From the NCBI GenBank assembly GCA_945892765.1, contig CAMDDQ010000001.1, forward strand, positions 40,486 through 104,485: a DNA stretch of 64,000 bases. The letters run 5' to 3'. Of this stretch, positions 966 to 21,985 are shown piece after piece. The DNA is from Asaia bogorensis. Lineage in GTDB: Bacteria > Pseudomonadota > Alphaproteobacteria > CACIAM-22H2. The position numbers were made by a program, and so were the translations under genes. Below the pieces are notes generated by a model. The model worked only from the letters and a program-made list of their open reading frames with translations, did no database searches and was not told where the DNA came from. Positions within the stretch are counted from its first letter, which is position 1; each line of letters begins with the position of its first letter.

Positions 966-3221
966 CTACATGAAGCTGTAAGGGTCCACGTCCACTTCGA
1001 TCTTCACGCCGGGCTTGATCTTGGTCGAATCCAGCCATTGGCGCAGGATCGCCTGGAGGTTCGCGGCCTTGCCGGTCTTGAGCAGGAGCCGGAAGCGGTG
1101 ACGCCCGCGCAGCAGCGATAGCGGGGCAGCGGCAGGGCCCAACACCCTGACGCCTTTGATCCGCGGCGCGTTTTTGGCGAGCGCGCGGGCGGCGGCTTCG
1201 GAATCCGCCGCCGCCGGCGCCGACACCACGATAGCGGCCAGCCGGCCGAAGGGCGGCAGCAGGCGGTCGCGCCGGTCCTCCGCCTCGCTCGCCATGAAGC
1301 GGTCGCGGGCGCCCGCGGCCAGCGCCTGCGTCACCGGGTGTTGCGGCAGATAGGTCTGGAGATAGACGCGGCCCGGGTGTTCGGCGCGGCCAGCCCGTCC
1401 CGCCACCTGGTGCAGAAGCTGGAAGGTCCGTTCCGCCGCGCGCAGATCGCCGCCGGCCAGCCCCAAATCCGCATCGACCACGCCGACCGTGGTGAGCAGC
1501 GGGAAATGATGGCCCTTCGCCATCACCTGCGTGCCGACCAGGATGTCGATCTCGCGTGCCTGCATCCGATCGACCAAGGCCTCGGCCTCGCGCGGGCTGG
1601 TCACGGTGTCGCTGGTCATGATCGCGATGCGGGCCTGGGGCCAGGCCGCGGCGGCTTCCTCGGCAACCCGCTCCACGCCGGGGCCGCAGGCGATCAGGCT
1701 GTCCTCGGCCCGGCAATGCGGGCAGAGGCGTGGCAGCGGCTGGCTTTCCCCGCAATGATGACAGGCCAGCCGCCCGGCCGCGCGATGTTCCACCAGCCAG
1801 GCCGCGCAATTGGCGCAGCGCATCCGATGGCCGCAGCCCCGGCACAAGGTCAGCGGCGCGTAGCCGCGGCGGTTGAGGAACAACATCGCCTGCTCGCCCT
1901 GTTCCAGCGCCTCTTGTACCGCCGTCCGCAGGACCGGGGACAGCCAATGCCGGCGCGGCGGCGGATGGCGGCGCAGATCGACGATCGCCACCTGCGGCAT
2001 CTGCGCCCCGCCATGGCGGTCGGCGAGCACCAGCCGCGTGTACCGCCCTTCCTCGACATTGGTCAGCGTCTCCAGCGACGGCGTCGCCGAGGCCAGCACC
2101 GCCGGGACCGCGGCGAGCCGCGCCCGCACCACCGCCATGTCGCGGGCGTGGTAGATGACGCCCTCCTCCTGCTTGAAGGCGGCTTCGTGTTCCTCGTCCA
2201 CGACGATGACCCCCAGCGCCGCCAGCGGCAGGAACAAGGCCGAACGCGCGCCCACCGCCACGCGGGCGTGGCCGGCGGCGATGGCATGCCAGGTCGCCCG
2301 CCGCACCGCCGGCGTCAGGTCCGAATGCCACACCGCCGGATCGGCCCCGAAGCGGCGGCGAAACCGCTCCAGCCATTGCGCCGACAACGCGATTTCCGGC
2401 AGCAGCACCAAGGCCTGCCGCCCCCGCCTTAGGGCCTCGGCAATCGCCTCGAAATACACCTCGGTCTTGCCCGAGCCGGTCACGCCATCGAGCAGCGTCA
2501 CCGAAAACCCGCCATCACCCACCCGCCTCCGCAGCGCCGCCGCCGCCTCTTCCTGCGCGGGCGACAGGGATGGCGCCGGCGGCAAGCCATTGACGCCCGT
2601 TGGCCCCCACACCGCCACCGCCGGTTCCAGCGGCGTGGCCTCGATCAGACCGGCATCGACCATGCCGTGGACGACCGCGCCGCTCACCCCGGCCGCCTTG
2701 GCCAAGGCCGCGGACGACCACGGGCCGGGTTGGTTTAGCCTCGCCAACACGCGGTGCCGCGCCGGCGTAAACCGCGCGCCGGCGGGCGGAGGCTCAACCA
2801 GCCCGTAGACGATGCGCGGGGCCGGCGGGTGCAGGATCGTGGGTGTGTTGATCGCCATGCGCAGCACCTTGCCGCGCGGCGTCAGCGTGTAGGCGGCCAC
2901 CCAATCAATCAGCCGGCACAGATCGGCGGGCAGCGGCGGCAAGTCGAGCTTTTCCAGAACCGGCTTGAGGCGCGCGCCGTCCACGGGCTCGGAATCCGGC
3001 GTCGCTTGCGCCCACACCACGCCGATTCCGCGGGTTTTTCCCAAAGGCACGGCGACGATGTCGCCCGGCTTCAGCGCCATCCCTTTGGCTGATGGATCGT
3101 CGGTCCCGGGAAGCGGAAGATAGTCGAAAGTCCGGTCCACTGGCACCGGCAGCAACACCGCCACGCGATGGGTCGATACGCGCGATCCGTCGGGGGGCGA
3201 AGTGGCGCGGGCGGCGGGCAT
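966..3221 (-). CDS. priA: primosomal protein N' (replication restart helicase PriA)
   Basis: Walker A GSGKTEVY, DEEH box and two CxxC zinc-finger pairs (CRGCGHRMRCANC / CHHCGESQPLPRLCPHC) in a 751-aa protein. Confidence 0.9.
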   Translation of the reverse strand: MPAARATSPPDGSRVSTHRVAVLLPVPVDRTFDYLPLPGTDDPSAKGMALKPGDIVAVPLGKTRGIGVVWAQATPDSEPVDGARLKPVLEKLDLPPLPADLCRLIDWVAAYTLTPRGKVLRMAINTPTILHPPAPRIVYGLVEPPPAGARFTPARHRVLARLNQPGPWSSAALAKAAGVSGAVVHGMVDAGLIEATPLEPAVAVWGPTGVNGLPPAPSLSPAQEEAAAALRRRVGDGGFSVTLLDGVTGSGKTEVYFEAIAEALRRGRQALVLLPEIALSAQWLERFRRRFGADPAVWHSDLTPAVRRATWHAIAAGHARVAVGARSALFLPLAALGVIVVDEEHEAAFKQEEGVIYHARDMAVVRARLAAVPAVLASATPSLETLTNVEEGRYTRLVLADRHGGAQMPQVAIVDLRRHPPPRRHWLSPVLRTAVQEALEQGEQAMLFLNRRGYAPLTLCRGCGHRMRCANCAAWLVEHRAAGRLACHHCGESQPLPRLCPHCRAEDSLIACGPGVERVAEEAAAAWPQARIAIMTSDTVTSPREAEALVDRMQAREIDILVGTQVMAKGHHFPLLTTVGVVDADLGLAGGDLRAAERTFQLLHQVAGRAGRAEHPGRVYLQTYLPQHPVTQALAAGARDRFMASEAEDRRDRLLPPFGRLAAIVVSAPAAADSEAAARALAKNAPRIKGVRVLGPAAAPLSLLRGRHRFRLLLKTGKAANLQAILRQWLDSTKIKPGVKIEVDVDPYSFM

Positions 3222-3310
3222 GGGTTAGACTCTGCGGAAGCGGAGGCGGTTTTCCCCGTCCTCTTATAGCGCCGGATCGGCGCGTACGGCACGACGATCG
3301 AGCAAGGACG

Positions 3311-4072
3311 ATGGCCAGCGATCCCGAAAAGATAACCAAGGCCCCGACCGCTGCGGACATGGCCGCCGCCGATGTCGCGGTCTATCTGCGCCGGCACCCG
3401 GATTTCCTGGACAAAAACCCCGAGATTCTGGCCGCGATGCTGCCGCCCGCGCGGCGCGAGGGCGACGGCGTGGTCGATTTACAGCGCGTGATGGTCGAAA
3501 AGCTCCGCGCCGAGATCGATCGGCTCCGTTCGGCCGAACACGAGCTGGTCTCGCTCGGCCGCAACAACATGCACCATCAGGGCCGCGTCCATGCCGCCGC
3601 ACTCGCGCTGCTGGGCGCCACCACGCTCGAACACCTGATCGAACTTGTCGGCACCGATCTCGCCGTCGATCTGGACGTGGACGCCGCCACCTTGTGTTTC
3701 GAGGCGCCGCCGCCCGCGGGCGAAGCCCGCTCGACTCCGGATTCCGGGCGGGCGCCGCCCCCCGACGGCGTTGCCTGCCGGGGTCTGCGCCTCGTGCCGC
3801 GCGGCGCCGTCAAACGCCTGCTCGATGGCAAATCCATCGTCCTGCTCGCCGACGAACCTGGCGACAAGGACCTGTTCGGCGAGGCCGCCAGCCTGGTCCG
3901 GTCCCAGGCCCTGATCAGCATCGAACCGCGGCGCGGCGCCCCCTTCGGCATCCTGGCGCTGGGCAGCCGCCATGCCGAGAAATTCCACCCCGGCCAGGGC
4001 ACCGAGCTGCTAGCCTTCCTCGGCCGCGTCGCCGAGCACTGCATCCGGTCATGGCTGGACCGCACGACCTGA
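3311..4072 (+). CDS. DUF484 family protein (conserved partner of xerC)
   Basis: N-terminus MASDPEKITKAPTAADMAAADVAVYLRRHPDFL, sitting immediately upstream of and overlapping xerC. Start taken at M74 of the ORF-track frame. Confidence 0.75.
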   Translation: MASDPEKITKAPTAADMAAADVAVYLRRHPDFLDKNPEILAAMLPPARREGDGVVDLQRVMVEKLRAEIDRLRSAEHELVSLGRNNMHHQGRVHAAALALLGATTLEHLIELVGTDLAVDLDVDAATLCFEAPPPAGEARSTPDSGRAPPPDGVACRGLRLVPRGAVKRLLDGKSIVLLADEPGDKDLFGEAASLVRSQALISIEPRRGAPFGILALGSRHAEKFHPGQGTELLAFLGRVAEHCIRSWLDRTT

Positions 4073-5016
4073 GCGAATTCCTTCCGAACCCCGAAACCGC
4101 GGACGCGGTCGCCGGCTGGCTCGAATGGCTGGCGACGGAACGCCGCGCCTCCCGCCACACTCTTTCCGCCTATCGCCACGACCTGCTCGCCTTCCTCGGC
4201 TTCATGGGTGGACATCTGGGCAGCGCCCAGTCCCCGGCCGATCTGGCGCTTCTCCGCACCGGCGATTTCCGAGCGTTCCTCGCCCGCCGCGCCGGCAAAG
4301 GCCTGACCGCCGCGACCAATGCCCGCGCGCTGTCGGTCCTGCGTTCGTTTTTTCGCTGGCTCGACCGCAACGGCCACGGCAAATGCGCCGGCCTCGGTGG
4401 ACTGCGCTCACCCAAGTTGCCGCGATCGGTGCCGCGCCCGTTGACCGTGGACGACGCGCGCAACGCGGTCGATCAGGTCGGCGATCTCAGCGACGAACCC
4501 TGGGTGGGTTTACGCGATACCGCGCTGCTTTGCCTGCTCTATGGATGCGGCCTGCGTATCGACGAGGCGTTGTCATTGAACCGCAGCGACATCGCGCCCC
4601 TGCTCCAGGGCGCGGACAGCCTGATCGTGCTCGGCAAAGGCCGTAAGCAGCGCATGGTCCCGGTTCTGCCCGCCGTGCGCGAGGCGCTGGCCGCCTATCT
4701 CGCTGTCTGCCCCCATGCCGCCGGCGTCACCGCGCCGGTGTTCTTCGGCATGCGCGGGAAACGCCTGCACGCCGGCATCGTGCAGAAACGGGTGCGAGAA
4801 CTGCGCGGCCTCATCGGCCTGCCCGACCGGGCCACGCCACACGCGCTGCGCCACAGCTTCGCCACACATCTGCTGGCCGCTGGCGGCGATCTGCGCGCCA
4901 TCCAGGAACTGCTCGGCCACGCCTCGCTGTCGACAACACAGCGCTACACCGAAATCGACGAAACCCAATTGCTCGCCGTCTACGACAAGGCGCATCCGCG
5001 AGCCCGTCGGGCGTAG
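4051..5016 (+). CDS. xerC: tyrosine recombinase XerC
   Basis: Carries HALRHSFATHLL and the LGHASLSTTQRYTEID catalytic Tyr motif. Start MAGPHDLSEF chosen by the usual XerC N-terminus. Confidence 0.9.
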   Translation: MAGPHDLSEFLPNPETADAVAGWLEWLATERRASRHTLSAYRHDLLAFLGFMGGHLGSAQSPADLALLRTGDFRAFLARRAGKGLTAATNARALSVLRSFFRWLDRNGHGKCAGLGGLRSPKLPRSVPRPLTVDDARNAVDQVGDLSDEPWVGLRDTALLCLLYGCGLRIDEALSLNRSDIAPLLQGADSLIVLGKGRKQRMVPVLPAVREALAAYLAVCPHAAGVTAPVFFGMRGKRLHAGIVQKRVRELRGLIGLPDRATPHALRHSFATHLLAAGGDLRAIQELLGHASLSTTQRYTEIDETQLLAVYDKAHPRARRA

Positions 5017-5573
5017 CCCGGCTGGGTTGGAATCAGCAAGGGGCAGTAGGGAAAGAAATGTGGGGGCCGCTTGGTCCCCACACCCCCAATAGTCCCGGGC
5101 AGGCCAGCTCCTCCGGCGCCTGCCTCGGACAATTCACGGCTTAGCGGGCTGAAGCCGGCAGTCCCGACCACAGCTCCACATCGTCGCGCTATACCCACCC
5201 GGAACACGCCGAATTTGAAGCTGTCGGCCGTGCGATAGGCGATGATCACGTTGAAGGGGAATTCCTGGCCGGTAAGGTCTTCCTTCAACACCTTGAAGAC
5301 GAGCCGGTTGCCCACAGGCTGGATGCGATTGTCGATCAGATGGTCGGTGTCGCCGTCCCAACGCACCCAATAGCCGAGATTGCTGCGCTGCAGCAGCAAA
5401 TTGCCCCAGGGTTTGGCGATGACAAAGGTGGCGAGCGGCTGATCGCCGTGCAGATCGATTTCGCGAACGATCTCGGCGGCCTCCGGCCGAATGGCGAGCG
5501 GCGCCAGGATCGCGCCTTCAACGCTCAACGTCTCGCTCCAGCCTGTGGCCGGAACGAGGAACGCTAACAACAT
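4980..5573 (-). CDS. hypothetical exported protein
   Basis: Signal-like N-terminus MLLAFLVPATGWS and alternating beta-strand-like sequence. The C-terminal ~45 residues are low-complexity and overlap the xerC 3' end, so the true stop is uncertain. Confidence 0.4.
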   Translation of the reverse strand: MLLAFLVPATGWSETLSVEGAILAPLAIRPEAAEIVREIDLHGDQPLATFVIAKPWGNLLLQRSNLGYWVRWDGDTDHLIDNRIQPVGNRLVFKVLKEDLTGQEFPFNVIIAYRTADSFKFGVFRVGIARRCGAVVGTAGFSPLSRELSEAGAGGAGLPGTIGGVGTKRPPHFFPYCPLLIPTQPGYARRARGCALS

Positions 5574-5698
5574 GAAAAAACAGGCAAATCCAAATTTGCA
5601 CGTACACGGCCTTCGGTCGTGTTCCGCTTGGATCGTGCGCCAACAGCGCCCCCCGGTTATCCCCCACTTTTTTTCCCGGCAAACAAAGCCGCGCCACT

Positions 5699-7402
5699 CT
5701 AATGCGGCGCCGCCGTTTGGCCAACCCGCGCCGCGCCGATGGTTCGCGGACGCATCGGTCCCATGGCCGGGGTGTGGAAGACGTGGCAGGCCACGCAGGT
5801 CGAAGGCACCAGCGCGGTCACGTCTTCACCGCCATGGCACCCACGGCAATTGGCGATGCCCGGTAGCAGGACGTCGGAACTGGCAACCGATTTGGGGGCG
5901 GCGTGGCAATCGACGCAGCCGGTGTTCTTGTGTTTGCTGTGATCGAATTTGCCCTTGGGCATCCAGGTCGTCGCCACCAGCACCGGCTTGACCCGGAAAT
6001 TGGGTCTCTCGTCGAGCCTGGTCGTCCGTTCGACGAAGTGGCAGCTCCCGCATATGCTCTTGCCGTAAACGATCTCGATGGTCGCATCGGCACGGCTGCG
6101 CGCCCAGGCCAGCGCTTCGGCGCGCGCCGCTTCCTCTAGCGGCGAGCCGGGACGGCGGCGCACGACGGCCGGCGCTTCGGGATCCTCGAAGCCGCCTTCG
6201 AGGGCGACGCGGCCGTAGAAATCGTTGAGAACATTGGCGACTTCGTCCGGTTTGCCATGCGGCACTTCGCGGTCGAGCGCGCGGGCCTCGAACTTCAATT
6301 TGTGGCAATCGCGGCAATCGGTCTCCATGTCCACCGCGCGCATGCCCACGCCGCCGGTCTCCGGCCGGTGGCAATCATTGCAGACCATTTTCTGCAACCC
6401 GGTGGGGCCCCGCACGCCGGCGTCCACCAAATGTTTGTCGTGCGGGAAGATCAGGTTGGAATTCTCCTTCAGCGCGGGATCGCCGACCGGCAGCCGCACC
6501 AATGTCCGGGTCGCCGGGTCGGTCACCACCGACGGCCGAAATTCGGGGTGATCGCGGCCGAAATCGCTGACATTGATCAGCTTGGTCGTAGGCACCATCG
6601 TGGTCAGCCGCACATGGCAGTCGTCGCACAAGGCCTGCGCCGTCTGGATCGCCGGCTGCCGGCCTTGATGTTCCTTGTGGCAAGACGCGCACCGGGTTTC
6701 TTCCAGGGCCGGCAGACGCACCGTCTTCACGTCGGCGTGGTGGGCGATGTCGTTGTGACAGGTTAGGCAGGCCTGGTCCTGGACCATGATGAACGGCCGC
6801 TCGTGGCAGGTTGTGCAATCAGTCGCGAAATATTTGTGCACACCGGAGATTTCGCCGGATTCCCATGACTTGTCCGCCGCGATCGGCATCGCGGTCATGC
6901 TCTTGTGAAGGTCGGGGATGAAGAAGGCGGCGACCGGAAGGATAAGAAAGAGCAACAGCACGGTGGCAAAGGCGGCCCAAGACAACACACGTTTGCTGAT
7001 CGCGGCATCACCCAAGCGGGCGTGGCTGCGTTGTGTCAGTTCAACGAGATCGTCGCCGAGCGGCTGCACCAGTTCGACGGTAACAGCGACGCCATAGCCG
7101 GGCGGCGCTTCCACGATTTCGATCTTGTAAGGACCGACGGCAATCGAGTCGCCTGGCTGGACGCGGCCGGAGTTGGCGGCGGCTCCGTTGATGGAGAGAT
7201 CGTTGGTGCCCACCGCGGAGACGTAGGACTGGCCGTCGCGCACATGCAGTTCGGCGTGGTCGAGCCCGATCCGCGGGTCGGGTAGATAGACTTCGTTCTT
7301 GGTGCCGCGGCCGATGCGAATGAATTCCACTGTGGCGTCTTGGTCGCGCCGGGAAACGCCACGATTGCCGCGCCGAGTCAGATAGCCGACCTGGACAAGC
7401 AC
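5699..7402 (-). CDS. FHA-domain / single-TM / decahaem cytochrome c fusion protein
   Basis: N-terminal FHA signature (TVEFIRIGRGTKNEVYLPDPRIGLDHAELHV), one TM (VLSWAAFATVLLLFLILPVAAFFIP), then ten CxxCH motifs (CTTCH, CLTCH, CASCH, CDDCH, CNDCH, CRDCH, CGSCH, CVDCH, CRGCH, CVACH). Confidence 0.8.
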   Translation of the reverse strand: MLVQVGYLTRRGNRGVSRRDQDATVEFIRIGRGTKNEVYLPDPRIGLDHAELHVRDGQSYVSAVGTNDLSINGAAANSGRVQPGDSIAVGPYKIEIVEAPPGYGVAVTVELVQPLGDDLVELTQRSHARLGDAAISKRVLSWAAFATVLLLFLILPVAAFFIPDLHKSMTAMPIAADKSWESGEISGVHKYFATDCTTCHERPFIMVQDQACLTCHNDIAHHADVKTVRLPALEETRCASCHKEHQGRQPAIQTAQALCDDCHVRLTTMVPTTKLINVSDFGRDHPEFRPSVVTDPATRTLVRLPVGDPALKENSNLIFPHDKHLVDAGVRGPTGLQKMVCNDCHRPETGGVGMRAVDMETDCRDCHKLKFEARALDREVPHGKPDEVANVLNDFYGRVALEGGFEDPEAPAVVRRRPGSPLEEAARAEALAWARSRADATIEIVYGKSICGSCHFVERTTRLDERPNFRVKPVLVATTWMPKGKFDHSKHKNTGCVDCHAAPKSVASSDVLLPGIANCRGCHGGEDVTALVPSTCVACHVFHTPAMGPMRPRTIGAARVGQTAAPH

Positions 7403-7426
7403 GGTACTACTCCCGCTCCGAAATCG

Positions 7427-8257
7427 TTACCAGTAGAAGAAAACAGAGAAGACGTGGGTGGTCAGGGCCGCCAGAAGGCCGACCGACAACGGCACGTGGA
7501 AAATCAGCCAAATTTCCAGGAATGCACGGTATTGCACGTCGCGCCGCGCGCGACCGACGAGGTCGTCCTTACGGCTCAACAACGTCAGCAACTTACGAAC
7601 GGCGACGGCGTCTTCAACCGAAACCTTGGTCGCCAGTTGCTTGATCCTGGCCAACGCGCGGGCCGTCGGGCAATTGGGATCGCGCCCGGAAAGCTGACGC
7701 CACACCGACCCGCCGATCTGCGTATTGCGGCCGGAATCGAGCACCGCCCGCGTGATCTCGTCGGGCAATCCCATGGAGGCATCGCGGCTTTCCGAATCGA
7801 GCGCGGCGATGCGGGTGAAAATCTCGGTCAGCGTCAGGCCGCCGCGGTTCTGCGTCATCAACGCGGGATACCTTTGGTAGAAAAACACGCCGAACACCCC
7901 GGACAGGATGACCAGCATCATCAAGGTGTAGGCAAGCGTATGCACATTCCAGCCGAACTGGAACCCGGTGTGCAGCGTGGCCACGACGATCAGGGCGAGG
8001 CCGAGATAGACATGCGCCGAGAGCCAGCCCTGGAGCTTCGTTGGACCCAAATTGTACCGCCGCTTGCGCACGCCGAACCACATAAGCCAAAGGACCAAGA
8101 CCGCGCCGATCGTGCCCAGCACGTAGCCGAGCCAGGTGCCGCCATTGGGCGGGTCCATCGGGCTGTCGGCGGCATAGACGATCGCGGCCGCCAGGGCGCC
8201 CAGGACGGCCACCTTCAGATACCGGAAGTTGCGATAGACGAGATAGGATTGATGCAT
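7427..8257 (-). CDS. integral membrane protein, putative di-haem b-type cytochrome (~5 TM)
   Basis: Two TM helices each carry His-x13-His (SAHVYLGLALIVVATLHTGF and IFHVPLSVGLLAALTTHVF), the spacing used for bis-His ligation of two b haems in NarI/FdnI-like cytochromes. Confidence 0.55.
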   Translation of the reverse strand: MHQSYLVYRNFRYLKVAVLGALAAAIVYAADSPMDPPNGGTWLGYVLGTIGAVLVLWLMWFGVRKRRYNLGPTKLQGWLSAHVYLGLALIVVATLHTGFQFGWNVHTLAYTLMMLVILSGVFGVFFYQRYPALMTQNRGGLTLTEIFTRIAALDSESRDASMGLPDEITRAVLDSGRNTQIGGSVWRQLSGRDPNCPTARALARIKQLATKVSVEDAVAVRKLLTLLSRKDDLVGRARRDVQYRAFLEIWLIFHVPLSVGLLAALTTHVFSVFFYW

Positions 8258-8280
8258 CGTCTTTTGGCTGTTGGCCGACC

Positions 8281-10680
8281 TTAGAGACCCCGGTTAGAAA
8301 GCGAGAAGAACTCGTCCGGGCTAACACGAATGGCGGCGCCGGTCGGACAGGCCCGCACGCAGGACGGTCCGCCTTCGATGCCTTTGCACATGTCGCATTT
8401 CACCGCCATCTTGCGTTTGTTGGGGTCCTTTTTCTTGCCGTGGGTGGCTTCCCAGTCCTCGCCGGGTCCATGGCCCAGCCCAAACAACATCCAAGCCAGC
8501 AAACCCGGCTTGGCCGGCGGCTCCGCCGACATGTGGATGACGTGATAGGGACAGTTGCGCTCGCAATTGCCGCAGCCAATGCATTTTTCGTCGATGAACA
8601 CCTCGCCATTCGGCGAACGATGGATGGCGTCGGCCGGGCAGTCGGACATGCAGTGCGGATGTTCACAATGCCGGCACGACGTTGGCACATGGATCGAGGC
8701 ATAGGTCGGCCCAGCCTCGCGATCGAGCCGCGACACGCCGTGATGGGTCTCGGCGCAGGCCTTTTCGCAATTGTCGCACCGCACGCACAGCGATTCGTCG
8801 ATCAGCAGAACGTCAGTTGCCTCGCCCAACCCTTGATCGAGCAGGAACTGCATCAGGTTCGAGTGGTCGGGGCGGCCTTCCATGCGGACGTTTTCGACGA
8901 GCCGCGCTTGGAACCGAGCCTCGACCTCTACGCGCAACTCCGGCGAGCACTCGAGCAGGCCGCGAAAGGCGCCGCCGTCGATCTTTATGGCCTCCGTCGC
9001 CACCGCCGCCCGCACCGTGGCGGTGCGCCGGCTCTTGGTCAGCAGCGCCATTTCGCCGACATAGTGGCCAGCCGGAACATACGACAAAACCACGTCGCGG
9101 CCGCCCAGGCTGCGCGACACGGTCACCGACCCGCTGCGGATCAGATAGACGTTGTCGCCGACATCACCCTCCTTGATCAGCACGTCGCCCGCACTGAAGG
9201 ACTGGATGGTGGCCGTCCGCACGACATCGACGAGGTCGCGCTTGGAAACCTGCGGCGCCAGATGGGTCTGAACCTGGCGGATCATGGCGGTCTCGTCGAG
9301 AACACGTTTGGCCGCGGCGATCGAGCGAGTCAGCTTGATGACCTGCCTGCGCGGCGTCTCGATCAACACGCAATCGGCGCCCGCCACGACCGTCGCCGTG
9401 CGGCGGCGGCCGGAAATCAAACCCATCTCGCCGAAGAATTCGCCGGTCTTCAGCGTCACCTTGATCGCCGGGTTTTCGGCGCTGACCTGGACATCGACCG
9501 ACCCCGACAGGATCGAATAGAAGCTGTTGGAGTAATCGTTGCGCTTGAAAACGGTCTCGCCCTGCTTGGGCACATGGACGTCGCTGTCGAGCAGGAATTC
9601 TCGAAGCTGCAGCTTGGTCAGCGAGGAGAACATCGGCACGCGCTGTTGCACGCCTTCCAGGAACTGCGAGACCGTCACCCCTTGTAGGCCGGTGAGTTTT
9701 GCCTCAAGCAACGGCTCGTCGGCCGGCTTCACCTCATTCCCCAGGATGTACTCGATTACCTCATAGCCCTGGTTCATGCAGTGTTTGATTAGGGGATAAC
9801 CGGCCAGCGCGCCGATGATGTAAAGCCCCTTCACGTTCGATTCGTAGCTGTCGCTGACCCCCGGAACCGAGGCCGGATCGGCGTTGGGGAACACGATGCC
9901 GCAGGCTTCGACGAATTTGCGCGGCGGCAGGGCGCCAATACGAGCGATGACCCGGTGGCACTTGACCACCGCCTCACCCTCCGGGGTTTTCAGAAAAATG
10001 GCGCTGGGATCGGTCTCGACCTTAATGACCTTGGTGTTGAAATAACACTGGATGCGGCCGTCCTTGATGGCCGATTCGATCAGTGCGACGTTGCCCGCCT
10101 TGGCGCGGGCGAAATCGCCCATGACGTTGACGACGATGACCTCGTTCTGGGCGGCCAGCGCGATGGCGTTTTCGAGCCCGGCATCACCGGCGCCGATCAC
10201 AACGATGGTTTCGTCTTTGTATTCTTCTGGATCGTCGAGCTGGTACTGGACGTTGGGGCCGGTTTCGCCGGGTACGCCTAGGGTGCGGATATTGCCCTGC
10301 AATCCAATGGCGAGCACAACGGCATCGGCGGTGAGCGTTTGTTTGTTGGCGAGCGTGATCGTGAAGATCGCGCCGTCCTTCTTGATGCCCGCGACATCGG
10401 CGTTTTGGCGCAGGTTGAATTTCAACTCGCCGGTGCTTTTGTCCCAGGAACCGAGGATGGTTTCGCGGGCGCCTTCCTTGAATTGAAGATCGCTGCGCAG
10501 GGGCAGGACCTCCGGCGTCGCCATGACGTGTTTTTTCTTCTGATACTTGTAGATCGTATCGGAAAGATGGGTGGTGCGTTCGAGCAGGACATAAGACGCG
10601 CCGCGCTTGGCGGCACGCCCCGCCGCGCTTAATCCCGCCGGGCCCGATCCGACAATCGCGATCGCATAGTGTTCGGCCAT
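8281..10680 (-). CDS. NAD(P)/FAD pyridine-nucleotide-disulfide oxidoreductase fused to two cNMP-binding domains and multi-cluster 4Fe-4S ferredoxin domains
   Basis: GSGPAGLSAAG and VVIGAGDAGLENA Rossmann motifs; two CAP-type cNMP-binding segments (FGEMGLISGRRRTATVVA, VGEMALLTKSRRTATVRA); Cys clusters CVRCDNCEKAC, CRHCEHPHCMSDCP, CIGCGNCERNCP, CDMC...CVRACP. Confidence 0.8.
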   Translation of the reverse strand: MAEHYAIAIVGSGPAGLSAAGRAAKRGASYVLLERTTHLSDTIYKYQKKKHVMATPEVLPLRSDLQFKEGARETILGSWDKSTGELKFNLRQNADVAGIKKDGAIFTITLANKQTLTADAVVLAIGLQGNIRTLGVPGETGPNVQYQLDDPEEYKDETIVVIGAGDAGLENAIALAAQNEVIVVNVMGDFARAKAGNVALIESAIKDGRIQCYFNTKVIKVETDPSAIFLKTPEGEAVVKCHRVIARIGALPPRKFVEACGIVFPNADPASVPGVSDSYESNVKGLYIIGALAGYPLIKHCMNQGYEVIEYILGNEVKPADEPLLEAKLTGLQGVTVSQFLEGVQQRVPMFSSLTKLQLREFLLDSDVHVPKQGETVFKRNDYSNSFYSILSGSVDVQVSAENPAIKVTLKTGEFFGEMGLISGRRRTATVVAGADCVLIETPRRQVIKLTRSIAAAKRVLDETAMIRQVQTHLAPQVSKRDLVDVVRTATIQSFSAGDVLIKEGDVGDNVYLIRSGSVTVSRSLGGRDVVLSYVPAGHYVGEMALLTKSRRTATVRAAVATEAIKIDGGAFRGLLECSPELRVEVEARFQARLVENVRMEGRPDHSNLMQFLLDQGLGEATDVLLIDESLCVRCDNCEKACAETHHGVSRLDREAGPTYASIHVPTSCRHCEHPHCMSDCPADAIHRSPNGEVFIDEKCIGCGNCERNCPYHVIHMSAEPPAKPGLLAWMLFGLGHGPGEDWEATHGKKKDPNKRKMAVKCDMCKGIEGGPSCVRACPTGAAIRVSPDEFFSLSNRGL

Positions 10681-11072
10681 GCCGGCCCCCCCTCGGACAC
10701 GTCAACGTTTATCTTGAGCCCCCGAACCCGAATCGACACTTCGCGAAAGGTCCGAGCCGCCAGGATTTCATAGACACGTTAGGGTTATAGCCCGACGGTT
10801 GTCAATTTCGGAGTGTCCTTCTACAGTGCATTTCTGTCACGTCGAACGCGCCCGCAACAGGGGGGAACCAACGGGTGACAAAGCGGCGACGTTCCAGTAC
10901 CCGCTATGGAGCCTGATCGGCGATTTCCCCATGGCCGCGCTGATGGCGATGGGCAGGATGCAGCGAGAAGTGGACAAAGTTGTGGGGGCCCGTCGGGCGA
11001 AGCCCGACTGACTCCGGAGTCGGCCGTTTCGCCGGCAGGGGCCTCCACGCCCCCAATAATCCAGGTCGGTGT

Positions 11073-11687
11073 TTAGGTCTTCCGGCGCAGCGGGCGGATG
11101 CGGGTGAGGTCGGCGGCTTCGGGTTCTCCCCAACGTTTGACCAAACCGAGATCGAGGTCGAACTGATCGAGGATGCGGCCGACCGTTTGGTTGACGATGT
11201 CGTTCACGGTGGCGGGTTTGGCATAAAAGGCCGGCACCGGCGGCATCACCACCGCGCCCATTTCCGTCACCGCCGCCATGCTGCGCAGATGTCCCAGATG
11301 CAGCGGCGTTTCGCGCACCGCCAACACCAGCCGCCGCCTTTCCTTCAGGGTGACGTCGGCGGCCCGGCTCAACAGGCTCGAGGTCACGCCGGAAGCGATC
11401 TCCGACAAAGTGCGGATCGAACAGGGCACGATCGCCATGCCGAGTGTCTTGAAGGAACCGCTGGCCAGCGACGCACCGATATCCGTGACCGCATGGAAGA
11501 CCGCAGCGAGATCGCGCACTTGGGCGACCTTTAGCGTCGTTTCATGGGCCAGCGTGATTTCGGCGGAGCGCGACATCACCAGATGTGTTTCGACATCGGT
11601 CCCGCGCAGCGCTTCCAGCAGCCGAATGCCGTAGACGACGCCGGACGCGCCGCTGATGCCGACGACTAATCTTTTGGGAGAAGCCAT
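11073..11687 (-). CDS. ubiX: flavin prenyltransferase UbiX
   Basis: MASPKRLVVGISGASGVVYGIRLLEAL matches the UbiX/Pad1 N-terminus. Start placed at M13 of the ORF-track frame. Confidence 0.85.
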   Translation of the reverse strand: MASPKRLVVGISGASGVVYGIRLLEALRGTDVETHLVMSRSAEITLAHETTLKVAQVRDLAAVFHAVTDIGASLASGSFKTLGMAIVPCSIRTLSEIASGVTSSLLSRAADVTLKERRRLVLAVRETPLHLGHLRSMAAVTEMGAVVMPPVPAFYAKPATVNDIVNQTVGRILDQFDLDLGLVKRWGEPEAADLTRIRPLRRKT

Positions 11688-11827
11688 GACAACCATCCTA
11701 CCGGCGGCCCGGCAAAGCGGCAATGCGAAGCGCGGCCTTGCCTCGCCGGTATGAAAGACGCACCCTATCCTCCGTGAGCGCCGATTCGCCAGAAGCCGAA
11801 AACGCCAACGCCACCCATCGCGAAAAG

Positions 11828-12397
11828 ATGGCGCGGATCAAGGCGGCACGCGACCGCATGATGGCGACCAAGACCGAACAACGCGGCCTGCTCATTGTCC
11901 ATACCGGCAAGGGCAAGGGCAAATCGACCGCCGCCTTCGGCATGGCCTTGCGCGCCATCGGCCATGGGATGCGAATCGGCATCGTGCAATTCATCAAGGG
12001 CGCGTGGAATTGCGGCGAGCGCGGCGCGCTGGAACATTTCGCCGAGTTGGTGACCATCCGCGCGATGGGGGAGGGCTTCACCTGGGAAACCCAGGATCGC
12101 GAGCGCGACATCGCCGCGGCGAGCCGGGCCTGGGACATGGCAAAATCGATGATCGCCGATGCCGGTTACGACATGGTGATTCTCGACGAGTTGAACGTCG
12201 CGCTGCGTTATGGCTATCTGCCCCTCACCGAGGTCCTGGATGTGTTCCGGTCGCGGCCGCCGGGGCTGCACGTCGTTGTCACCGGCCGCAACGCCGCGCC
12301 CGAATTGATCGACCTCGCCGATCTCGTCACCGAAATGACCATGGTCAAACATCCGTTTCGCGATGGAATCAAGGCGCAGAAGGGGGTCGAGTTTTGA
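11828..12397 (+). CDS. cobO: cob(I)alamin adenosyltransferase CobO/BtuR
   Basis: GLLIVHTGKGKGKSTAAFGMALRAIGHGMRIGIVQFIKG is the BtuR P-loop signature. Start at M36 of the ORF frame by N-terminal alignment. Confidence 0.85.
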   Translation: MARIKAARDRMMATKTEQRGLLIVHTGKGKGKSTAAFGMALRAIGHGMRIGIVQFIKGAWNCGERGALEHFAELVTIRAMGEGFTWETQDRERDIAAASRAWDMAKSMIADAGYDMVILDELNVALRYGYLPLTEVLDVFRSRPPGLHVVVTGRNAAPELIDLADLVTEMTMVKHPFRDGIKAQKGVEF

Positions 12398-12444
12398 GGC
12401 CACCCGCCGCCATTCACGCCCCTACCCAAAGATTGGAGGCATCC

Positions 12445-13146
12445 ATGCTCCGCACTGCTATCCCGCACATCAACCAATCCCGCCGGTCCTTTTTGACCAC
12501 CGGGCTGGCTGCCGGAATCGGCGCCGCAACCTTGGCCGCGCCCGCCCGCGCCGATCAGCCCCTGGTCGATCGCGCCCGCCTTACCTTGCAGGCGCTGCTC
12601 GTCGACCGTGACTACGCCACCTTTCAACGCCTTCTGCCATTGGCCAAGGCCACCTTGATCGTGCCCAATCTGTTCAAGGCCGGATTGTTCCTGGGCGCCG
12701 AGGGCGGCGATGGCGTTCTTCTCGTCCGCGATCCGGGGCGCGGCTGGAGCCCGCCTGCCTTCTATGCCCTGGCCAGCGGCAGCATTGGCCTGCAAATCGG
12801 CGTGCAGGACGCCCAAGTCGTGTTGTTGATCATGAACGAGAAGGGGCTGAACGCGCTGACCCGCGATCAGGTCAAGCTGGGCGCCGACATCAGCATCGCC
12901 GCCGGCCCGGTCGGCGCCGGGCTGGACGCGGCAACCACGACCAATCTGGGCGAGGACATTTATTCTTTCTCCAAGACCCGCGGGCTGTTCGGCGGCTTGT
13001 CGCTCGAAGGCACGGTCATCTATCGCCGCGACGATTTTAATGCCGCCTATTACGGCGCCGGCGCCACGACCCAGACCATTGTCTTCGACCGGCGTTTCAC
13101 CAATCCCGGTGCCGCCGCCTTGATCGCCGCCCTGCCGCGAACCTGA
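12445..13146 (+). CDS. SYLF (Ysc84/DUF500) lipid-binding domain protein with a Tat signal
   Basis: Twin-arginine signal [25 protein letters not shown] and GGAG RBS. It is inserted between cobO and cobQ. Confidence 0.6.
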
Positions 13147-13151
13147 CCGCC

Positions 13152-14669
13152 GTGAGCCGCGCGGGGGTGACGGATACCGGCATCCGCCGCGACCGCAAGC
13201 GAACCGCCGCCCTGATGATCCAGGGCACCGGCTCGGACGTTGGCAAATCCATGATCGTCGCCGGGCTGGCTCGCGCCTTCACCCGACGCGGGCTGCGCGT
13301 GCGCCCCTTCAAGCCGCAAAACATGTCGAACAACGCCGCGGTCACCGAAGATGGCGGCGAAATCGGGCGCGCCCAGGCGCTTCAGGCCCGCGCCTGCGGA
13401 ATCGCGCCGCATTCGGACATGAACCCAGTGCTGCTCAAGCCGCAATCGGACACCGGCGCGCAAATCGTCGTGCAAGGCCGCGTGTATGGCTGGGCGAACG
13501 CCGCGGAGTATCGCGGCCTAAAAGGAACTTTGCTTCCCGCCGTGCTCGAAAGCTTCGGCCGGCTCGCCGTCGATGCCGATCTGGTCCTGGTCGAAGGCGC
13601 CGGCAGCCCAGCCGAAATCAACCTCCGCGACGGCGACATCGCCAATATGGGTTTTGCGCTCGCCGCCGAGGTTCCGGTCGTTCTTGTCGGCGACATCGAA
13701 CGCGGCGGCGTCATCGCCAGCTTGGTCGGCACATATTTGCTGCTGGAACCCGCCGAACGCGCGGCCCTGAAAGGTTTCATCGTCAACAAATTCCGCGGCG
13801 ATGCCCGATTGTTCGACGACGGCATCCGCGCAATCGTGGAGCGCACGGGCATGGAATGTCTCGGCGTGGCGCCCTATTTCGATGCCGCGTCGACGTTGCC
13901 GGCGGAGGATTCCGCCAGCCTCGATTCGACCAAGCTCCGGCGCCGGACTGACGGCCATATCCGAGTCGCCATCCCGCGTTTGCCGCGCATCGCCAATTTC
14001 GACGATCTCGACCCACTCGCGGCCGAAGCCGACGTGTCGGTTGAAATGGTGCTGGCGGGCCGGCCCTTGCCCGAAGATGCCGAGCTGATCGTGCTGCCGG
14101 GTTCCAAATCCACGCTGTCCGATCTGGCTTTCCTGCGGCGGCAGGGCTGGGACATCGACATCCTCGCCCATGTCCGTCGCGGCGGCACGGTGATCGGCAT
14201 TTGCGCCGGTTATCAGATGCTGGGCACACACATCGCCGATCCCGACGGTGTGGACGGAAACGCGGGTGAAACACCCGGTCTGGGCTTGCTCGCCGTGGCA
14301 ACGATCATGGGCAGGGATAAGACGCTGATCGCGGTGAAGGGTGGCGATGCCCTAAGCGGTGCGGCCATCCGCGGTTATGAAATGCATGTCGGCGCCACGA
14401 CCGGCCCCGATCTTAAGCGCCCGATGCTGGTCATCGATGGCAAGCCGCATGGCGCCTCCAGCCGCGATGGCCGGGTCCGCGGCTGTTATATCCATGGGTT
14501 GCTCGCGTCGGACGATTATCGCGGCAAACTCTTGCGGGGCTTGCGGCCGAGCCGCGACGGCGGCGTTGCCTACGACACGCTGGTCGAATCTACCCTCGAC
14601 CGACTCGCCGATCATTTGGCCGAAGCACTCGATCTCGACCGGCTGCTGACGATAGCCCGAGCGCGGTGA
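13152..14669 (+). CDS. cobQ: cobyric acid synthase CobQ/CbiP
   Basis: [13 protein letters not shown]-loop and a C-terminal glutamine amidotransferase domain. The start may lie at a later codon. Confidence 0.9.
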
Positions 14670-19460: not shown

Positions 19461-20171
19461 GTGATGGGCATCGGCACCCTTTACGGTCTCGGTGTCGGGC
19501 CGGGCGATCCGGAGCTCCTCACGCTCAAGGCCCTGCGCGTGCTGCGCGCCTGCCCCGTAATCGCCTATCCCGCGCCGGAGGAAGGCAACAGCTTCGCGCG
19601 CTCCATCGTTGCGCCCCACCTGATCGGAAACCAGCGAGAGATCGAAATCCGCATGCCGTTGAGCGCCGAGCGATTCCCCGCGGCGGAGGCTTATGACCGC
19701 GGTGCCGCGGCCATCGCGGCCGAGCTGCGCGGGGGAAACGACGTGGCGGTGTTGTGTCAGGGCGACCCGTTTCTCTATGGCTCCTTCCAATATCTGTTCG
19801 CGCGCATGGCCGACGACTTCAGGGTCGTGGTTGTTCCGGGCGTTTCGTCGATTACCGCGTCGGCGGCGGCGCTGTGCATGTCATTGGCCGCCCGCGACGA
19901 TGTCGTCGCGATTGTCCCCGCGACGCTGCCGGAAGAGCGGCTGGAAGCGACCCTCGCCGCGGCCGATGCGGCGGCCATCCTCAAACTCGGGCGGCATTTC
20001 GCCAAGGTACGCACCGTGTTGGACCGGCTTGGCCTCGCCGATCGCGCCCGTTATATCGAACGCGCCACGTTGGACGGCCAGACCATGACACCGCTCGCCA
20101 GCGTCGATCCGGCGCGGGTTCCCTATTTCTCGATAATCCTCGTGCATAAACGCGGCGCGGCTTTCCGATGA
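19461..20171 (+). CDS. cobI: precorrin-2 C20-methyltransferase CobI/CbiL
   Basis: LYGLGVGPGDPELLTLKA motif. Confidence 0.85.
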   Translation: MMGIGTLYGLGVGPGDPELLTLKALRVLRACPVIAYPAPEEGNSFARSIVAPHLIGNQREIEIRMPLSAERFPAAEAYDRGAAAIAAELRGGNDVAVLCQGDPFLYGSFQYLFARMADDFRVVVVPGVSSITASAAALCMSLAARDDVVAIVPATLPEERLEATLAAADAAAILKLGRHFAKVRTVLDRLGLADRARYIERATLDGQTMTPLASVDPARVPYFSIILVHKRGAAFR

Positions 20172-21985
20172 ACCGGACACGTCTGCCCGCGGGCGCCGCG
20201 CTGGTCGCGCTGACCGCCGACGGCGCGCGGCTCGCCGCCCGAATAAAGCCCGCGCTGCCGGCCGCCCGCATCCATGGGCTCGGTGCGCGCATTGCCGTCG
20301 CCGACGAGATTTTCTCCGACACGGCCGAACACCTGCGCTTCCTCTTCGCCGCCGGCCGGCCGATCATCGGTATCTGCGCGGCCGGCATCCTGATCCGCGC
20401 GTTGGCGCCGCTGCTCGCCAACAAACGCGCGGAGCCGCCGGTAATCGCGGTCGCGGCCGATGGCGGCGCGGTTGTGCCGCTTCTCGGCGGGCATCGCGGC
20501 GCCAACCGGCTCGCCAAGGCCATCGCTGCCGCGCTCGGCGGCGTCGCTTCGATCACAACCGCCGGCGACACGGCCCTCGGCTTTGCCCTGGACGACCCGC
20601 CCGCGGGCTGGCGCGTCGCCAATGTAGAGGCCGCCAAGGCAATGACGGCCGCGCTTCTTGCGGGCGGTTCCGTGGCGCTGGCGGTGGAGGCCGGCGACGC
20701 CACCTGGCTGCGCGACTCGGGGATCGGCTTCGTGGAAACGGCGCCGCTCCGCGTGCTGGTAACCGACCGCGCCGTCATTGGCGATGCCTCGACGCTGGTC
20801 CTGCATCCGCCGGTTCTGGCGGTGGGTGTGGGCTGCGAGCGGGATGCCGACCCGGAGGAACTTGCCCGGTTGGTCGATGGCACCTTGGCCGCGCATGGGC
20901 TGTCGCCGCTTTCGGTCGCCTGTGTCGCCAGCATCGATTTGAAGGCCGACGAGCCGGCCGTGCAGTCCATGGCACGAAGACTGGGCGTGCCGGCCAGGTT
21001 CTACCCAGCCGCGCGGCTAGAGGACGAAAAGCCGCGCCTGCGCAACCCGTCCGACGTCGTGTTCCGCGAAACCGGCTGTCATGGCGTCGCCGAGGGTGCG
21101 GCGCTGGCCGCCGCTGGGAAGGAATCTGTCCTGATCGTGCCCAAGGTCAAATCGGCGCGCGCCACCGGCGCCGTCGCGCGCAGTCCCGCCGACATCGATG
21201 CGACCGCGGTTGGCCGCGGGCGCGGCCGTCTGGCAATAATCGGCATCGGTCCCGGCGCGGCCTCGTTGCGCACACCGGAGGCCTCCGCCGCCTTGGCCGA
21301 AGCGACCGATATCGTCGGCTATTCCCTCTATGTGGAACTGCTGGGGTCCGCCGCCATCGGCAAACGCATTCACGAACGGCCCTTGGGCGCCGAGACCGAA
21401 CGGACGCAACTCGCGCTCGACCTCGCTGCCGCGGGAGCCAACGTCGCCTTGATTTCATCCGGCGACGCCGGAATCTATGGCTTGGCGAGCCTCGCCTTTG
21501 AAATGCTCGACCGCGAGAACCGGGCCGATTGGAATCGCGCCGCCATCGCGGTTATTCCCGGGGTTTCCGCGCTACAGGCCGCGGCGGCAGCCGCCGGGGC
21601 CATCCTCGGCCATGATTTCGCGGCGATTTCGCTGTCCGACCTGCTGACGCCATGGCCCGATATCGAGCGACGGCTGCGGGCCGCGGCCGAGGGCGATTTC
21701 GTCGTTGCCCTCTACAATCCCGCCTCGGCGAAGCGGCAACGCGGGATCGGCGTGGCCCGCGACATCCTGCTGGCCCATCGCGCGCCCGACACGCCGGTCG
21801 TGTTGGCGCGCAATCTGGGCCGCGACGGCCAACGTGTCGACACCATCACCTTGGCGGAGCTCGGCCCCGACAAAGTCGACATGCTGACTATCGTATTGAT
21901 CGGCTCGACCCAATCGCGAAGATTGCGCCGCGGCCGGGAGGATTGGGTCTACACGCCGCGCGGTTACGAACGGAAATCGACGTAG
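20168..21985 (+). CDS. cbiG-cobJ: CbiG (cobalt-precorrin-5A hydrolase) fused to precorrin-3B C17-methyltransferase CobJ/CbiH
   Basis: N-terminal CbiG domains (...GIGCERDADPEEL...) and a C-terminal tetrapyrrole methylase (LAIIGIGPGAASLRTPEA...DVVFRETG). Confidence 0.85.
   Translation: MNRTRLPAGAALVALTADGARLAARIKPALPAARIHGLGARIAVADEIFSDTAEHLRFLFAAGRPIIGICAAGILIRALAPLLANKRAEPPVIAVAADGGAVVPLLGGHRGANRLAKAIAAALGGVASITTAGDTALGFALDDPPAGWRVANVEAAKAMTAALLAGGSVALAVEAGDATWLRDSGIGFVETAPLRVLVTDRAVIGDASTLVLHPPVLAVGVGCERDADPEELARLVDGTLAAHGLSPLSVACVASIDLKADEPAVQSMARRLGVPARFYPAARLEDEKPRLRNPSDVVFRETGCHGVAEGAALAAAGKESVLIVPKVKSARATGAVARSPADIDATAVGRGRGRLAIIGIGPGAASLRTPEASAALAEATDIVGYSLYVELLGSAAIGKRIHERPLGAETERTQLALDLAAAGANVALISSGDAGIYGLASLAFEMLDRENRADWNRAAIAVIPGVSALQAAAAAAGAILGHDFAAISLSDLLTPWPDIERRLRAAAEGDFVVALYNPASAKRQRGIGVARDILLAHRAPDTPVVLARNLGRDGQRVDTITLAELGPDKVDMLTIVLIGSTQSRRLRRGREDWVYTPRGYERKST

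Follow-up and report, generated by a model that had tools for sequence, protein, structure and literature searches.

A decahaem cytochrome with a degenerate FHA domain belongs to a conserved three-gene redox operon in Alphaproteobacteria

What is a fold known for reading phosphothreonine in the cytoplasm doing on the same polypeptide as ten periplasmic haems? The question is raised by one gene in a 64,000-nucleotide stretch of the Asaia bogorensis assembly GCA_945892765.1 (contig CAMDDQ010000001.1, forward-strand positions 40,486 to 104,485), which is referred to below as the window. The gene, here called FHC, encodes a forkhead-associated (FHA) domain, a single transmembrane (TM) helix and a decahaem c-type cytochrome domain, and it follows two other genes in the operon OXR-TMB-FHC. 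The original prediction had the cytochrome recruited or regulated by a phosphoprotein through the FHA domain. The answer we favor is that this operon would encode an inner-membrane redox complex of three subunits in which FHC serves as the periplasmic electron wire, with the FHA domain acting as a docking module and regulation entering via cyclic nucleotides; we hold this answer to be evenly balanced against everything else that could be proposed.

The interval 5699-7402 is one open reading frame (ORF), lying on the minus strand and not the plus, and overlapping plus-strand ORFs (5491-5991, 6257-6766 and 6905-7285) were treated as high-GC artefacts. The proposed order of an FHA domain, a single TM helix and ten CxxCH motifs was borne out by Pfam matches above cutoff to FHA and multihaem families, by an AlphaFold2 (AF2) model, by Foldseek and by hydropathy. 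The ten motifs are CTTCH196, CLTCH212, CASCH238, CDDCH259, CNDCH341, CRDCH363, CGSCH451, CVDCH496, CRGCH519 and CVACH539, and the CTTCH-x11-CLTCH pairing was described correctly. All 20 Cys of the protein fall within these motifs, and 20,000 shuffles of its sequence gave a mean of 0.03 CxxCH and a maximum of 2, compared to the 10 observed. Every motif is kept in 118 of 118 aligned relatives, in which exactly 10 more His are invariant (residues 189, 222, 245, 285, 321, 324, 382, 488, 491 and 543) and no Met is. Since ten extra His are invariant and no Met is, all ten haems c are likely to be bis-His ligated, as would suit electron transfer and not catalysis, a wire and not an enzyme. Pfam multihaem models match FHC above their cutoffs (Cytochrome_C7, 55.4 bits; Cytochrom_c3_2, 41.4; Paired_CXXCH_1, 35.6; Cytochrom_CIII, 34.5). 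Among Pfam and NCBIfam models, no match to the NapC/NirT family was found at E<=1, the DmsE/MtrA decahaem family (TIGR03508) reached 18.8 bits against a cutoff of 192.2, and the scores to TmcA and HmcA lie far below their cutoffs. As judged by these models, FHC is a member of the FHA fold and multihaem c families and fails the tests for NapC/NirT, DmsE/MtrA, SctD and TagH.

Kyte-Doolittle hydropathy found a sole hydrophobic segment in FHC (residues 144 to 162, peak score 2.76) and no signal-like segment at the N terminus. The AF2 model, built on 19 relatives, places a helix at residues 137 to 161; its haem domain was poorly modelled, as expected without haem. On the N side of the TM helix the flank is 'QRSHARLGDAAISKR', which is positively charged, and on the C side it is 'DLHKSMTA'. 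Since FHC has a single TM helix with a positively charged flank on its N side and no signal peptide, and since haem attachment needs the periplasm, the prediction that the FHA domain is cytoplasmic and the haems are periplasmic is sound, which supports the topology originally proposed. A candidate twin-arginine export signal, 'YLTRRGNRG' at the N terminus (region of residues 8 to 15; positions 7370-7402 are residues 1 to 11), was rejected, since it lacks a hydrophobic stretch behind it and the model places it in FHA strands 1 and 2. The conserved form of this stretch is 'LTRK.RGG'.

How well is the FHA domain equipped to bind phosphothreonine? Its fold is not in doubt: Pfam FHA (PF00498) matches residues 28 to 90 with 29.5 bits against a cutoff of 20.7, and AF2 models residues 1 to 111 as an 11-strand sandwich with 10-residue block-mean pLDDT values of 73 to 90. 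The top Foldseek matches in the PDB are all FHA domains (OdhI, GarA, FhaA, Rv1747 and DgcB), with target-normalised TM-scores of 0.7 to 0.79 and, for OdhI, GarA and FhaA, a probability of 1.00. OdhI and GarA (PDB 8p5x, 6i2q and 4qcj) are the closest solved structures and sequences, and HMMER alignment of FHC residues 29 to 100 to them was used to map the pocket. 'RIGRG' aligns with the GR motif, and 'LPDPRIGLDHAE' aligns with 'LDDVTVSRRHAE' of OdhI/GarA. The serine of the SxxH motif is Gly46 in FHC and the following basic position is Leu47 ('IGLDHAE' versus 'VSRRHAE' in OdhI), while His49, Thr66 and Asn67 are present at aligned pocket positions of the window protein. OdhI and GarA are soluble proteins with full GR, SxxH and NG motifs under the control of Hanks kinases, whereas the FHC domain lacks the serine and is anchored in the membrane.

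Conservation among the 118 relatives separates the fold from the chemistry. G31 and R32 are invariant (118/118). The serine position is occupied by Pro in 31, Leu in 29, Ser in 15 and Ala in 13; position 47 is Leu in 101; the His is kept in 52, and the loop Asn (residue 67 in the strand 6-7 loop, equivalent to Rad53 N107) in 5. The same pattern is seen in 76 more distant representatives, with GR in 73 to 75 and Ser in 9. The original prediction took loss of the conserved binding residues as a reason to abandon it; Gly-Arg stands, and for the other residues that loss is largely what we found. Other residues are family specific, namely D42 (111/118) and R44 (112/118) in the strand 4-5 loop and the conserved G90-P91-Y92 in the strand 10-11 turn. 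These alignments indicate that the canonical binding face is conserved as a surface and the phosphothreonine chemistry is not, and because the apical loops hold family-specific conserved residues, the domain probably still binds something. The constraint extends toward the membrane: E110, the LGDD motif and R138 are conserved, and dN/dS is 0.03 to 0.04 for residues 101 to 138 (which include FHA strand 11 with E110) compared to 0.17 to 0.34 for residues 1 to 100.

Searches by tblastn with PknB and PstP queries turned up neither a Hanks kinase nor a PP2C phosphatase, be it in the window or within 10 kb on either side of 83 related loci, and no such enzyme is present in the precomputed Pfam annotation of genes neighboring FHC relatives. 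With pocket residues not conserved in the family and no such enzymes found nearby, the idea of a cytochrome under phosphoprotein control is unsupported.

The partners of FHC are constant. The three genes occur in the order OXR-TMB-FHC on the same strand in 79 to 80 of the 83 loci, from both Alpha- and Gammaproteobacteria, with OXR adjacent in 79 of 83, and very distant members keep the order, including a variant with nine haems. In the window the intergenic gaps are 23 to 24 nt, and all three genes are under purifying selection, with dN/dS values of 0.04 to 0.05 for OXR, 0.05 to 0.07 for TMB and 0.13 for FHC (the last against the related loci L004 and L005). The features of the locus are collected in Table 1.

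Table 1. Positions of the features discussed, numbered in the window unless a related locus (L) is named
Feature	Position	Strand	Details and basis
FHC gene: FHA, TM helix, decahaem c-type cytochrome	5699..7402	minus	GTG start, 567 aa; ORF and translation, Pfam, orthologue
FHC cytoplasmic FHA domain, residues 1-111	7070..7402	minus	Degenerate phosphothreonine pocket; Pfam, AF2, Foldseek, alignments
FHC juxtamembrane linker, residues 112-138	6989..7069	minus	LGDD motif, invariant R138; alignments, dN/dS
FHC single TM helix, residues 139-163	6914..6988	minus	Signal-anchor type, N terminus inside (predicted); hydropathy, AF2
FHC periplasmic decahaem domain, residues 164-567	5699..6913	minus	10 CxxCH and 10 invariant distal His
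TMB gene: five-TM protein, putative dihaem cytochrome b	7427..8257	minus	276 aa; 24 nt upstream of FHC
OXR gene: cytoplasmic flavoprotein, TrxR/YpdA-like, with two cyclic-nucleotide-binding domains and four [4Fe-4S] motifs	8281..10680	minus	799 aa; Pfam, NCBIfam, PDB matches
Terminator-like hairpin, GC-rich with T-rich tail, overlapping the FHC stop codon	5691..5710	minus	Consensus scan; weak
G4 remnant	4980..5573	minus	Only residues ~1-126 homologous, rest reads into deletion junction; tblastn to 52/83 loci
Deletion junction	5093..5186		~93 bp in place of 7.8 kb (G4 3' end and G5-G6-G7) of L004 (12220-20057); blastn
Downstream module, examples	L001:9796-17755, L002:9812-17729, L084:9743-17412		

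OXR, the best-conserved gene of the triad (52 to 66% identity), has PDB matches to Bdr/YpdA, to PKA-R/PKG and to HycB. Its glycine motifs for FAD and NAD(P)H are GSGPAG and GAGDAG. No redox CxxC of the NADPH domain is found before residue 632, and the scores to TRX_reduct (60.5 versus 343) and YpdA (130.6 versus 339.9) are below their cutoffs; OXR is predicted to be flavoprotein-like and not a disulfide reductase. The cyclic-nucleotide-binding model PF00027 scores 130.3 bits over two stretches, above cutoff, and both phosphate-binding cassettes (GE...RTA) are intact, 'GEMGLISGRRRTA' at residue 417 and 'GEMALLTKSRRTA' at residue 542. A C-terminal domain similar to HycB, NrfC and DmsB carries 16 Cys in four [4Fe-4S] ferredoxin motifs. 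Neither a TM helix nor a signal peptide was found in OXR.

Five His of TMB (H82, H96, H106, H254 and H268) are invariant in all 76 distinct orthologues. Four of them form two i,i+14 pairs, H82/H96 on TM3 and H254/H268 on TM5, and by the positive-inside rule the first His of each pair (H82 and H254) lies toward the cytoplasm and the second (H96 and H268) toward the periplasm. This four-His pattern is the classical signature of two stacked b haems, making TMB a putative dihaem cytochrome b. TMB falls below the cutoff of every cytochrome b family tested: Ni_hydr_CYTB (PF01292) gives 17.7 bits against 30.1 for the window protein and is sub-threshold in 30 of 30 members (best E, 3.5e-7), with further sub-threshold matches to Ferric_reduct (PF01794) in 11 of these and to DUF4405 in 8. 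When a profile of the TMB alignment was run against PDB sequences, only chance matches came out, e.g., to ATP synthase b (E ~0.4). The TMB family looks very large, with 7,536 of 8,000 scored candidates at E<=0.001; it is covered by neither Pfam nor NCBIfam, nor does it have a solved relative. A cytoplasmic helical insert of ~115 residues in TMB holds an invariant Cys196 and a Gly182-Gly183 pair.

What could these three proteins do together? The favored reading of an operon-encoded redox complex starts from the domain content, cofactor motifs, topology, synteny and co-inheritance, conservation and purifying selection observed above. The electron path is inferred from the cofactor motifs: cytoplasmic NAD(P)H would reduce the FAD of OXR, and electrons would run along its four [4Fe-4S] clusters into TMB. 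There they would pass from the haem b on the cytoplasmic side (His82/His254) to the one on the periplasmic side (His96/His268), and from it into the ten bis-His haems c of FHC. The degenerate FHA domain is probably a phospho-independent dock, as in the FHA domain of SctD from type III secretion systems (T3SS) or in the phospho-independent mode of GarA, whose FHA face also binds metabolic-enzyme targets without phosphorylation. Via its apical loops (R32, D42, R44 and G90-P91-Y92) it would keep soluble OXR, the cytoplasmic domain of TMB or both at the membrane. The regulatory signal would then be a cyclic nucleotide, sensed by the two intact binding domains of OXR, and not phosphothreonine. Outward flow is favored because, on established knowledge, the redox ladder would run downhill in that direction and the layout mirrors NOX-type and Fre-MsrQ systems.

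Several points weigh against this reading. Complex formation, the contacts between subunits and the FHA partner are things we infer, as is the direction of flow, and if electrons moved outward from NAD(P)H electrogenically, the membrane potential would be dissipated. Related proteins occur in Fe(II) oxidizers, for which inward flow was proposed (bioRxiv 10.64898/2026.01.22.701106). R32 and R44 are fully or nearly invariant Arg on the FHA binding face and could form a noncanonical anion or phosphate site, and the window protein does have His49, Thr66 and Asn67. The kinase search was made with two query sequences on local DNA only.

The most serious rival is inward flow or quinone coupling. Like CymA/NapC, CbcL or NarI, TMB and FHC would then work as an oxidoreductase between the quinone pool and periplasmic partners, either quinol:cytochrome c or cytochrome c:quinone, with electrons moving inward, for example, when Fe(II) is oxidized. 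OXR would be a side branch, accessory or regulatory, that the FHA domain only tethers. Such a role has been suggested for a nonahaem FHA cytochrome of identical architecture in Ferrigenium straubiae (bioRxiv 10.64898/2026.01.22.701106). Dihaem b proteins of the Ni_hydr_CYTB, NarI and FdnI type, where the best (sub-threshold) matches of TMB lie, are usually quinone reactive, and the fifth invariant His of TMB (H106) sits at the periplasmic face with conserved polar residues. Relatives are also found in Fe(II) and sulfur oxidizers and in a biocathode metagenome-assembled genome (MAG) (Ferrovibrio, Sulfuriflexus and Biocath_Alpha_33). However, FHC lacks the NapC/NirT signature, no quinone-site motif is identifiable, and OXR, best conserved of the three and retained in nearly all loci, looks more like a core subunit than an accessory. 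We consider quinone coupling somewhat unlikely, while treating it seriously.

A working phosphothreonine reader, with the cytochrome recruited or switched once a partner, or FHC itself, has been phosphorylated by a Ser/Thr kinase, appears improbable. The FHA model match is above cutoff, the nearest structures are genuine phosphothreonine-binding domains, the phosphate-binding Arg is invariant, the other pocket residues of the window protein include His49, Thr66 and Asn67, and R44, two residues before the Ser position, might replace the missing serine. A function shared by the family cannot rest on residues that are not conserved, though, and neither the serine nor the basic residue after it, the His nor the Asn is conserved; a Hanks kinase or PP2C was found neither in the window nor in the related loci searched, nor in the Pfam annotation of neighbors. 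Could the FHA-TM unit instead oligomerize FHC into a ring or scaffold that organizes a trans-envelope complex with the downstream proteins G5 to G7 described below, as in T3SS SctD, T6SS TagH or gliding GltG, with OXR docking incidental? The layout of FHA, one TM helix and periplasmic domain is the same, there are matches to Yop-YscD_cpl (24.9 bits), TagH and GltG, and a porin-like protein (G6) and a decahaem-propeller protein (G7) are conserved downstream in 65 to 71 of the 83 loci. Those matches are all below cutoff, though, no secretion-system genes lie in the neighborhoods examined, and the triad is kept under purifying selection after loss of G5 to G7, which leaves the scaffold quite improbable.

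In 65 to 71 of the 83 loci the triad is followed by G4, G5, G6 and G7, an order kept in very distant members. G4 is a small exported protein. G5 (~640 aa) has a signal peptide and two stretches matching an HbpS-like family; G6 (~600 aa) is free of Cys, with a signal peptide and a weak porin match; and G7 (~1,270 aa) is exported, with ten CxxCH motifs, an LVIVD propeller and a weak match to ExtM. By these features G5 to G7 look like a porin-cytochrome outer conduit, and in most genomes the chain from FHC would continue to this periplasmic and outer-membrane module of HbpS-like G5, porin-like G6 and G7. A Tenderiales uet cluster, taken from the literature on LVIVD and multihaem proteins, was rejected as unrelated to the FHC cluster.

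In the window this module has been deleted. G5 to G7 are absent from the whole window, and what remains of G4 is a remnant that has 43% identity to G4 of L001 at positions 5519-5202 and no family match. blastn aligns window positions 10887..5186 with 6514..12220 of L004 and then positions 5093..3760 with 20057..21393. L005 also lacks the module, but its deletion end points differ (L005:12032-12035), and window positions 5386..5020 are missing there as well. Because the end points differ, the loss seems not to have been one shared event, or else to have progressed further, and it seems ongoing or repeated in the lineage of the window. Loci with the triad alone recur (L005, L073, L074 and L083). 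Decay of the locus into a pseudogene was rejected, as the ORFs are intact and dN/dS is 0.04 to 0.13. Since the three genes are intact and under purifying selection after the loss of G5 to G7, the triad is predicted to be a functional unit on its own. The hairpin at the FHC stop codon could end the operon transcript at the reduced locus; the number of sites in the hairpin scan equals the shuffle expectation, so the hairpin is only a pointer.

A mobile-element context, suggested by a 'phage integrase' match, was rejected, the gene being a housekeeping xerC-type recombinase beside DUF484 and priA in a region syntenic in close relatives. On the other side of the operon, L004 has ~5.3 kb (1193-6514) between OXR and the flavoprotein region upstream of it that the window lacks (10884-10887). 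The upstream region (11073-14669 and beyond) holds a flavoprotein (PF02441) gene, a Ysc84-domain gene and, by the annotation of a close relative, the cobalamin biosynthesis genes CobO, CbiA, CobD and CbiX, none of them with an obvious link to the redox operon.

The architecture had been called rare, which holds by frequency: in a scan of one genome per species, relatives of FHC were found in at least 303 species genomes, ~0.16% of the total. It does not hold in the sense of an oddity, as these form a conserved family noted in two papers. A protein search returned >120 full-length relatives of 560 to 600 aa and a 688-aa subgroup, mostly from MAGs of Rhodospirillales, Kiloniellales and Azospirillaceae and some from Gammaproteobacteria. 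Their NCBI names go no further than 'FHA domain-containing protein' or 'cytochrome c3 family protein'. Most hosts are uncultured Alphaproteobacteria from fresh water, the sea and soil, and some are Gammaproteobacteria; cultured ones include Oceanibacterium hippocampi, Desertibaculum subflavum, Zavarzinia sp. and Ferrovibrio. The window is ~92% identical to the lake MAGs behind L004 and L005 (FHC orthologue P0001 of L004, 92%). The FHA-linker-TM unit alone matched 223 clusters (50% identity) at E<=1e-10, and among the matches listed that are at least 500 aa long, 71 have ten CxxCH and 4 have nine; hence, this FHA subtype essentially always travels with a cytochrome. In the 688-aa subgroup (P0086, P0092, P0094 and others) ~100 residues are inserted between haem motifs 8 and 9, and another relative, P0113, has separate insertions, one of which holds extra Cys.

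Similar proteins have been described twice. A pangenome study of Gallionellaceae (2023) listed a 10-haem 'Forkhead-associated protein' cytochrome in 27 genomes (PMC9900912 / PMC10734462). The nonahaem 'NHC' cluster of Ferrigenium straubiae has a cytosolic FHA domain, one TM helix and a periplasmic multihaem domain, next to five-TM and [4Fe-4S] proteins, without signal peptides; its authors (2026) stated that FHA joined to multihaem had not been reported before and saw no redox motif in the TM protein (bioRxiv 10.64898/2026.01.22.701106). By their published descriptions these clusters are alike to FHC in architecture and three-gene neighborhood, and a homologue search with a nine-haem FHC member returned Geminicoccaceae and not Gallionellaceae. 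NHC has nine haems and FHC ten, and the earlier hosts are betaproteobacterial Fe(II) oxidizers, whereas FHC comes from a freshwater Rhodospirillales lineage. In place of a TM protein without redox motif, TMB has five invariant membrane His and sub-threshold matches to cytochrome b families. The FHA binding residues were examined here and not in the NHC preprint.

How does the triad compare to better-known machines? T3SS SctD proteins (YscD, PscD, MxiG and PrgH), like FHC, have an N-terminal cytoplasmic FHA domain, one TM helix and a periplasmic domain. Their FHA pocket is degenerate, does not bind phosphothreonine and docks SctK, and it is our working model for the FHA domain of FHC. The N-terminal domain of MxiG keeps the FHA fold without phosphothreonine binding (PMC3162421), and the FHA domain of PscD docks the cytoplasmic adaptor PscK (bioRxiv 10.1101/2020.09.22.308627). 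FHC differs from SctD in its Yop-YscD_cpl (PF16697) score, which is short of the 33.2-bit cutoff, in carrying a decahaem domain instead of the ring-building periplasmic part, and in having no secretion genes nearby.

On the redox side, two groups of systems offer parallels. Fre-MsrQ-MsrP, NOX/FRD, NarH-NarI and FdnH-FdnI resemble the triad in that a cytoplasmic NAD(P)H flavoprotein or four-cluster FeS protein exchanges electrons with a membrane protein holding two stacked haems b, with a periplasmic partner beyond it. The triad departs from them in that TMB scores below the cutoffs of those families, the flavin, cyclic-nucleotide and FeS modules are fused in one soluble subunit, and an FHA domain is part of the periplasmic partner, a decahaem wire anchored in the membrane. 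CymA/NapC/NrfH, ImcH, CbcL and Hmc/Tmc share with FHC an inner-membrane multihaem c facing the periplasm, found with cytochrome b and FeS subunits, that links cytoplasmic or membrane redox pools to the periplasm. Unlike CymA, NapC and NrfH, FHC has no NapC/NirT signature and its anchor follows a 138-residue cytoplasmic domain instead of being N-terminal, and unlike the CymA- and Hmc-type systems the putative donor of the triad is an NAD(P)H flavoprotein with cyclic-nucleotide-binding domains.

A fuller version of the favored reading, which we offer tentatively as possible but doubtful, is that OXR-TMB-FHC would be a cyclic-nucleotide-gated, quinone-independent transmembrane complex for electron export (or import), a bacterial three-component NOX-like wire whose phosphothreonine-blind FHA domain acts as a docking clamp for the soluble dehydrogenase. 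In most hosts it would feed G5 to G7 and complete a conduit from NAD(P)H to the cell surface in aerobic freshwater and marine Alphaproteobacteria.

The redox module of FHC is widespread and functionally uncharacterized, and it had already been noticed by others (2023, 2026). Added here are the breadth of the family, the strict triad, the wider cluster of six to seven genes, the His signature of a dihaem b in TMB, the NAD(P)H, cyclic-nucleotide and FeS nature of OXR, the degenerate FHA pocket and the deletion in the window. For the window alone the meaning is modest, an intact but reduced copy of a known family. The membrane His of TMB and the FHA face (R32, D42 and R44) can be mutated, some hosts are in culture and triad-only variants occur naturally, which makes the question testable. 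If the proposed path is true, at least 303 species genomes would encode a widespread link from cytoplasmic NAD(P)H to periplasmic or extracellular redox partners that bypasses the quinone pool and is controlled by cAMP or cGMP. It would bear on extracellular electron transfer and on iron and manganese cycling, as well as on how FHA folds are reused as phospho-independent adaptors in membrane machines.

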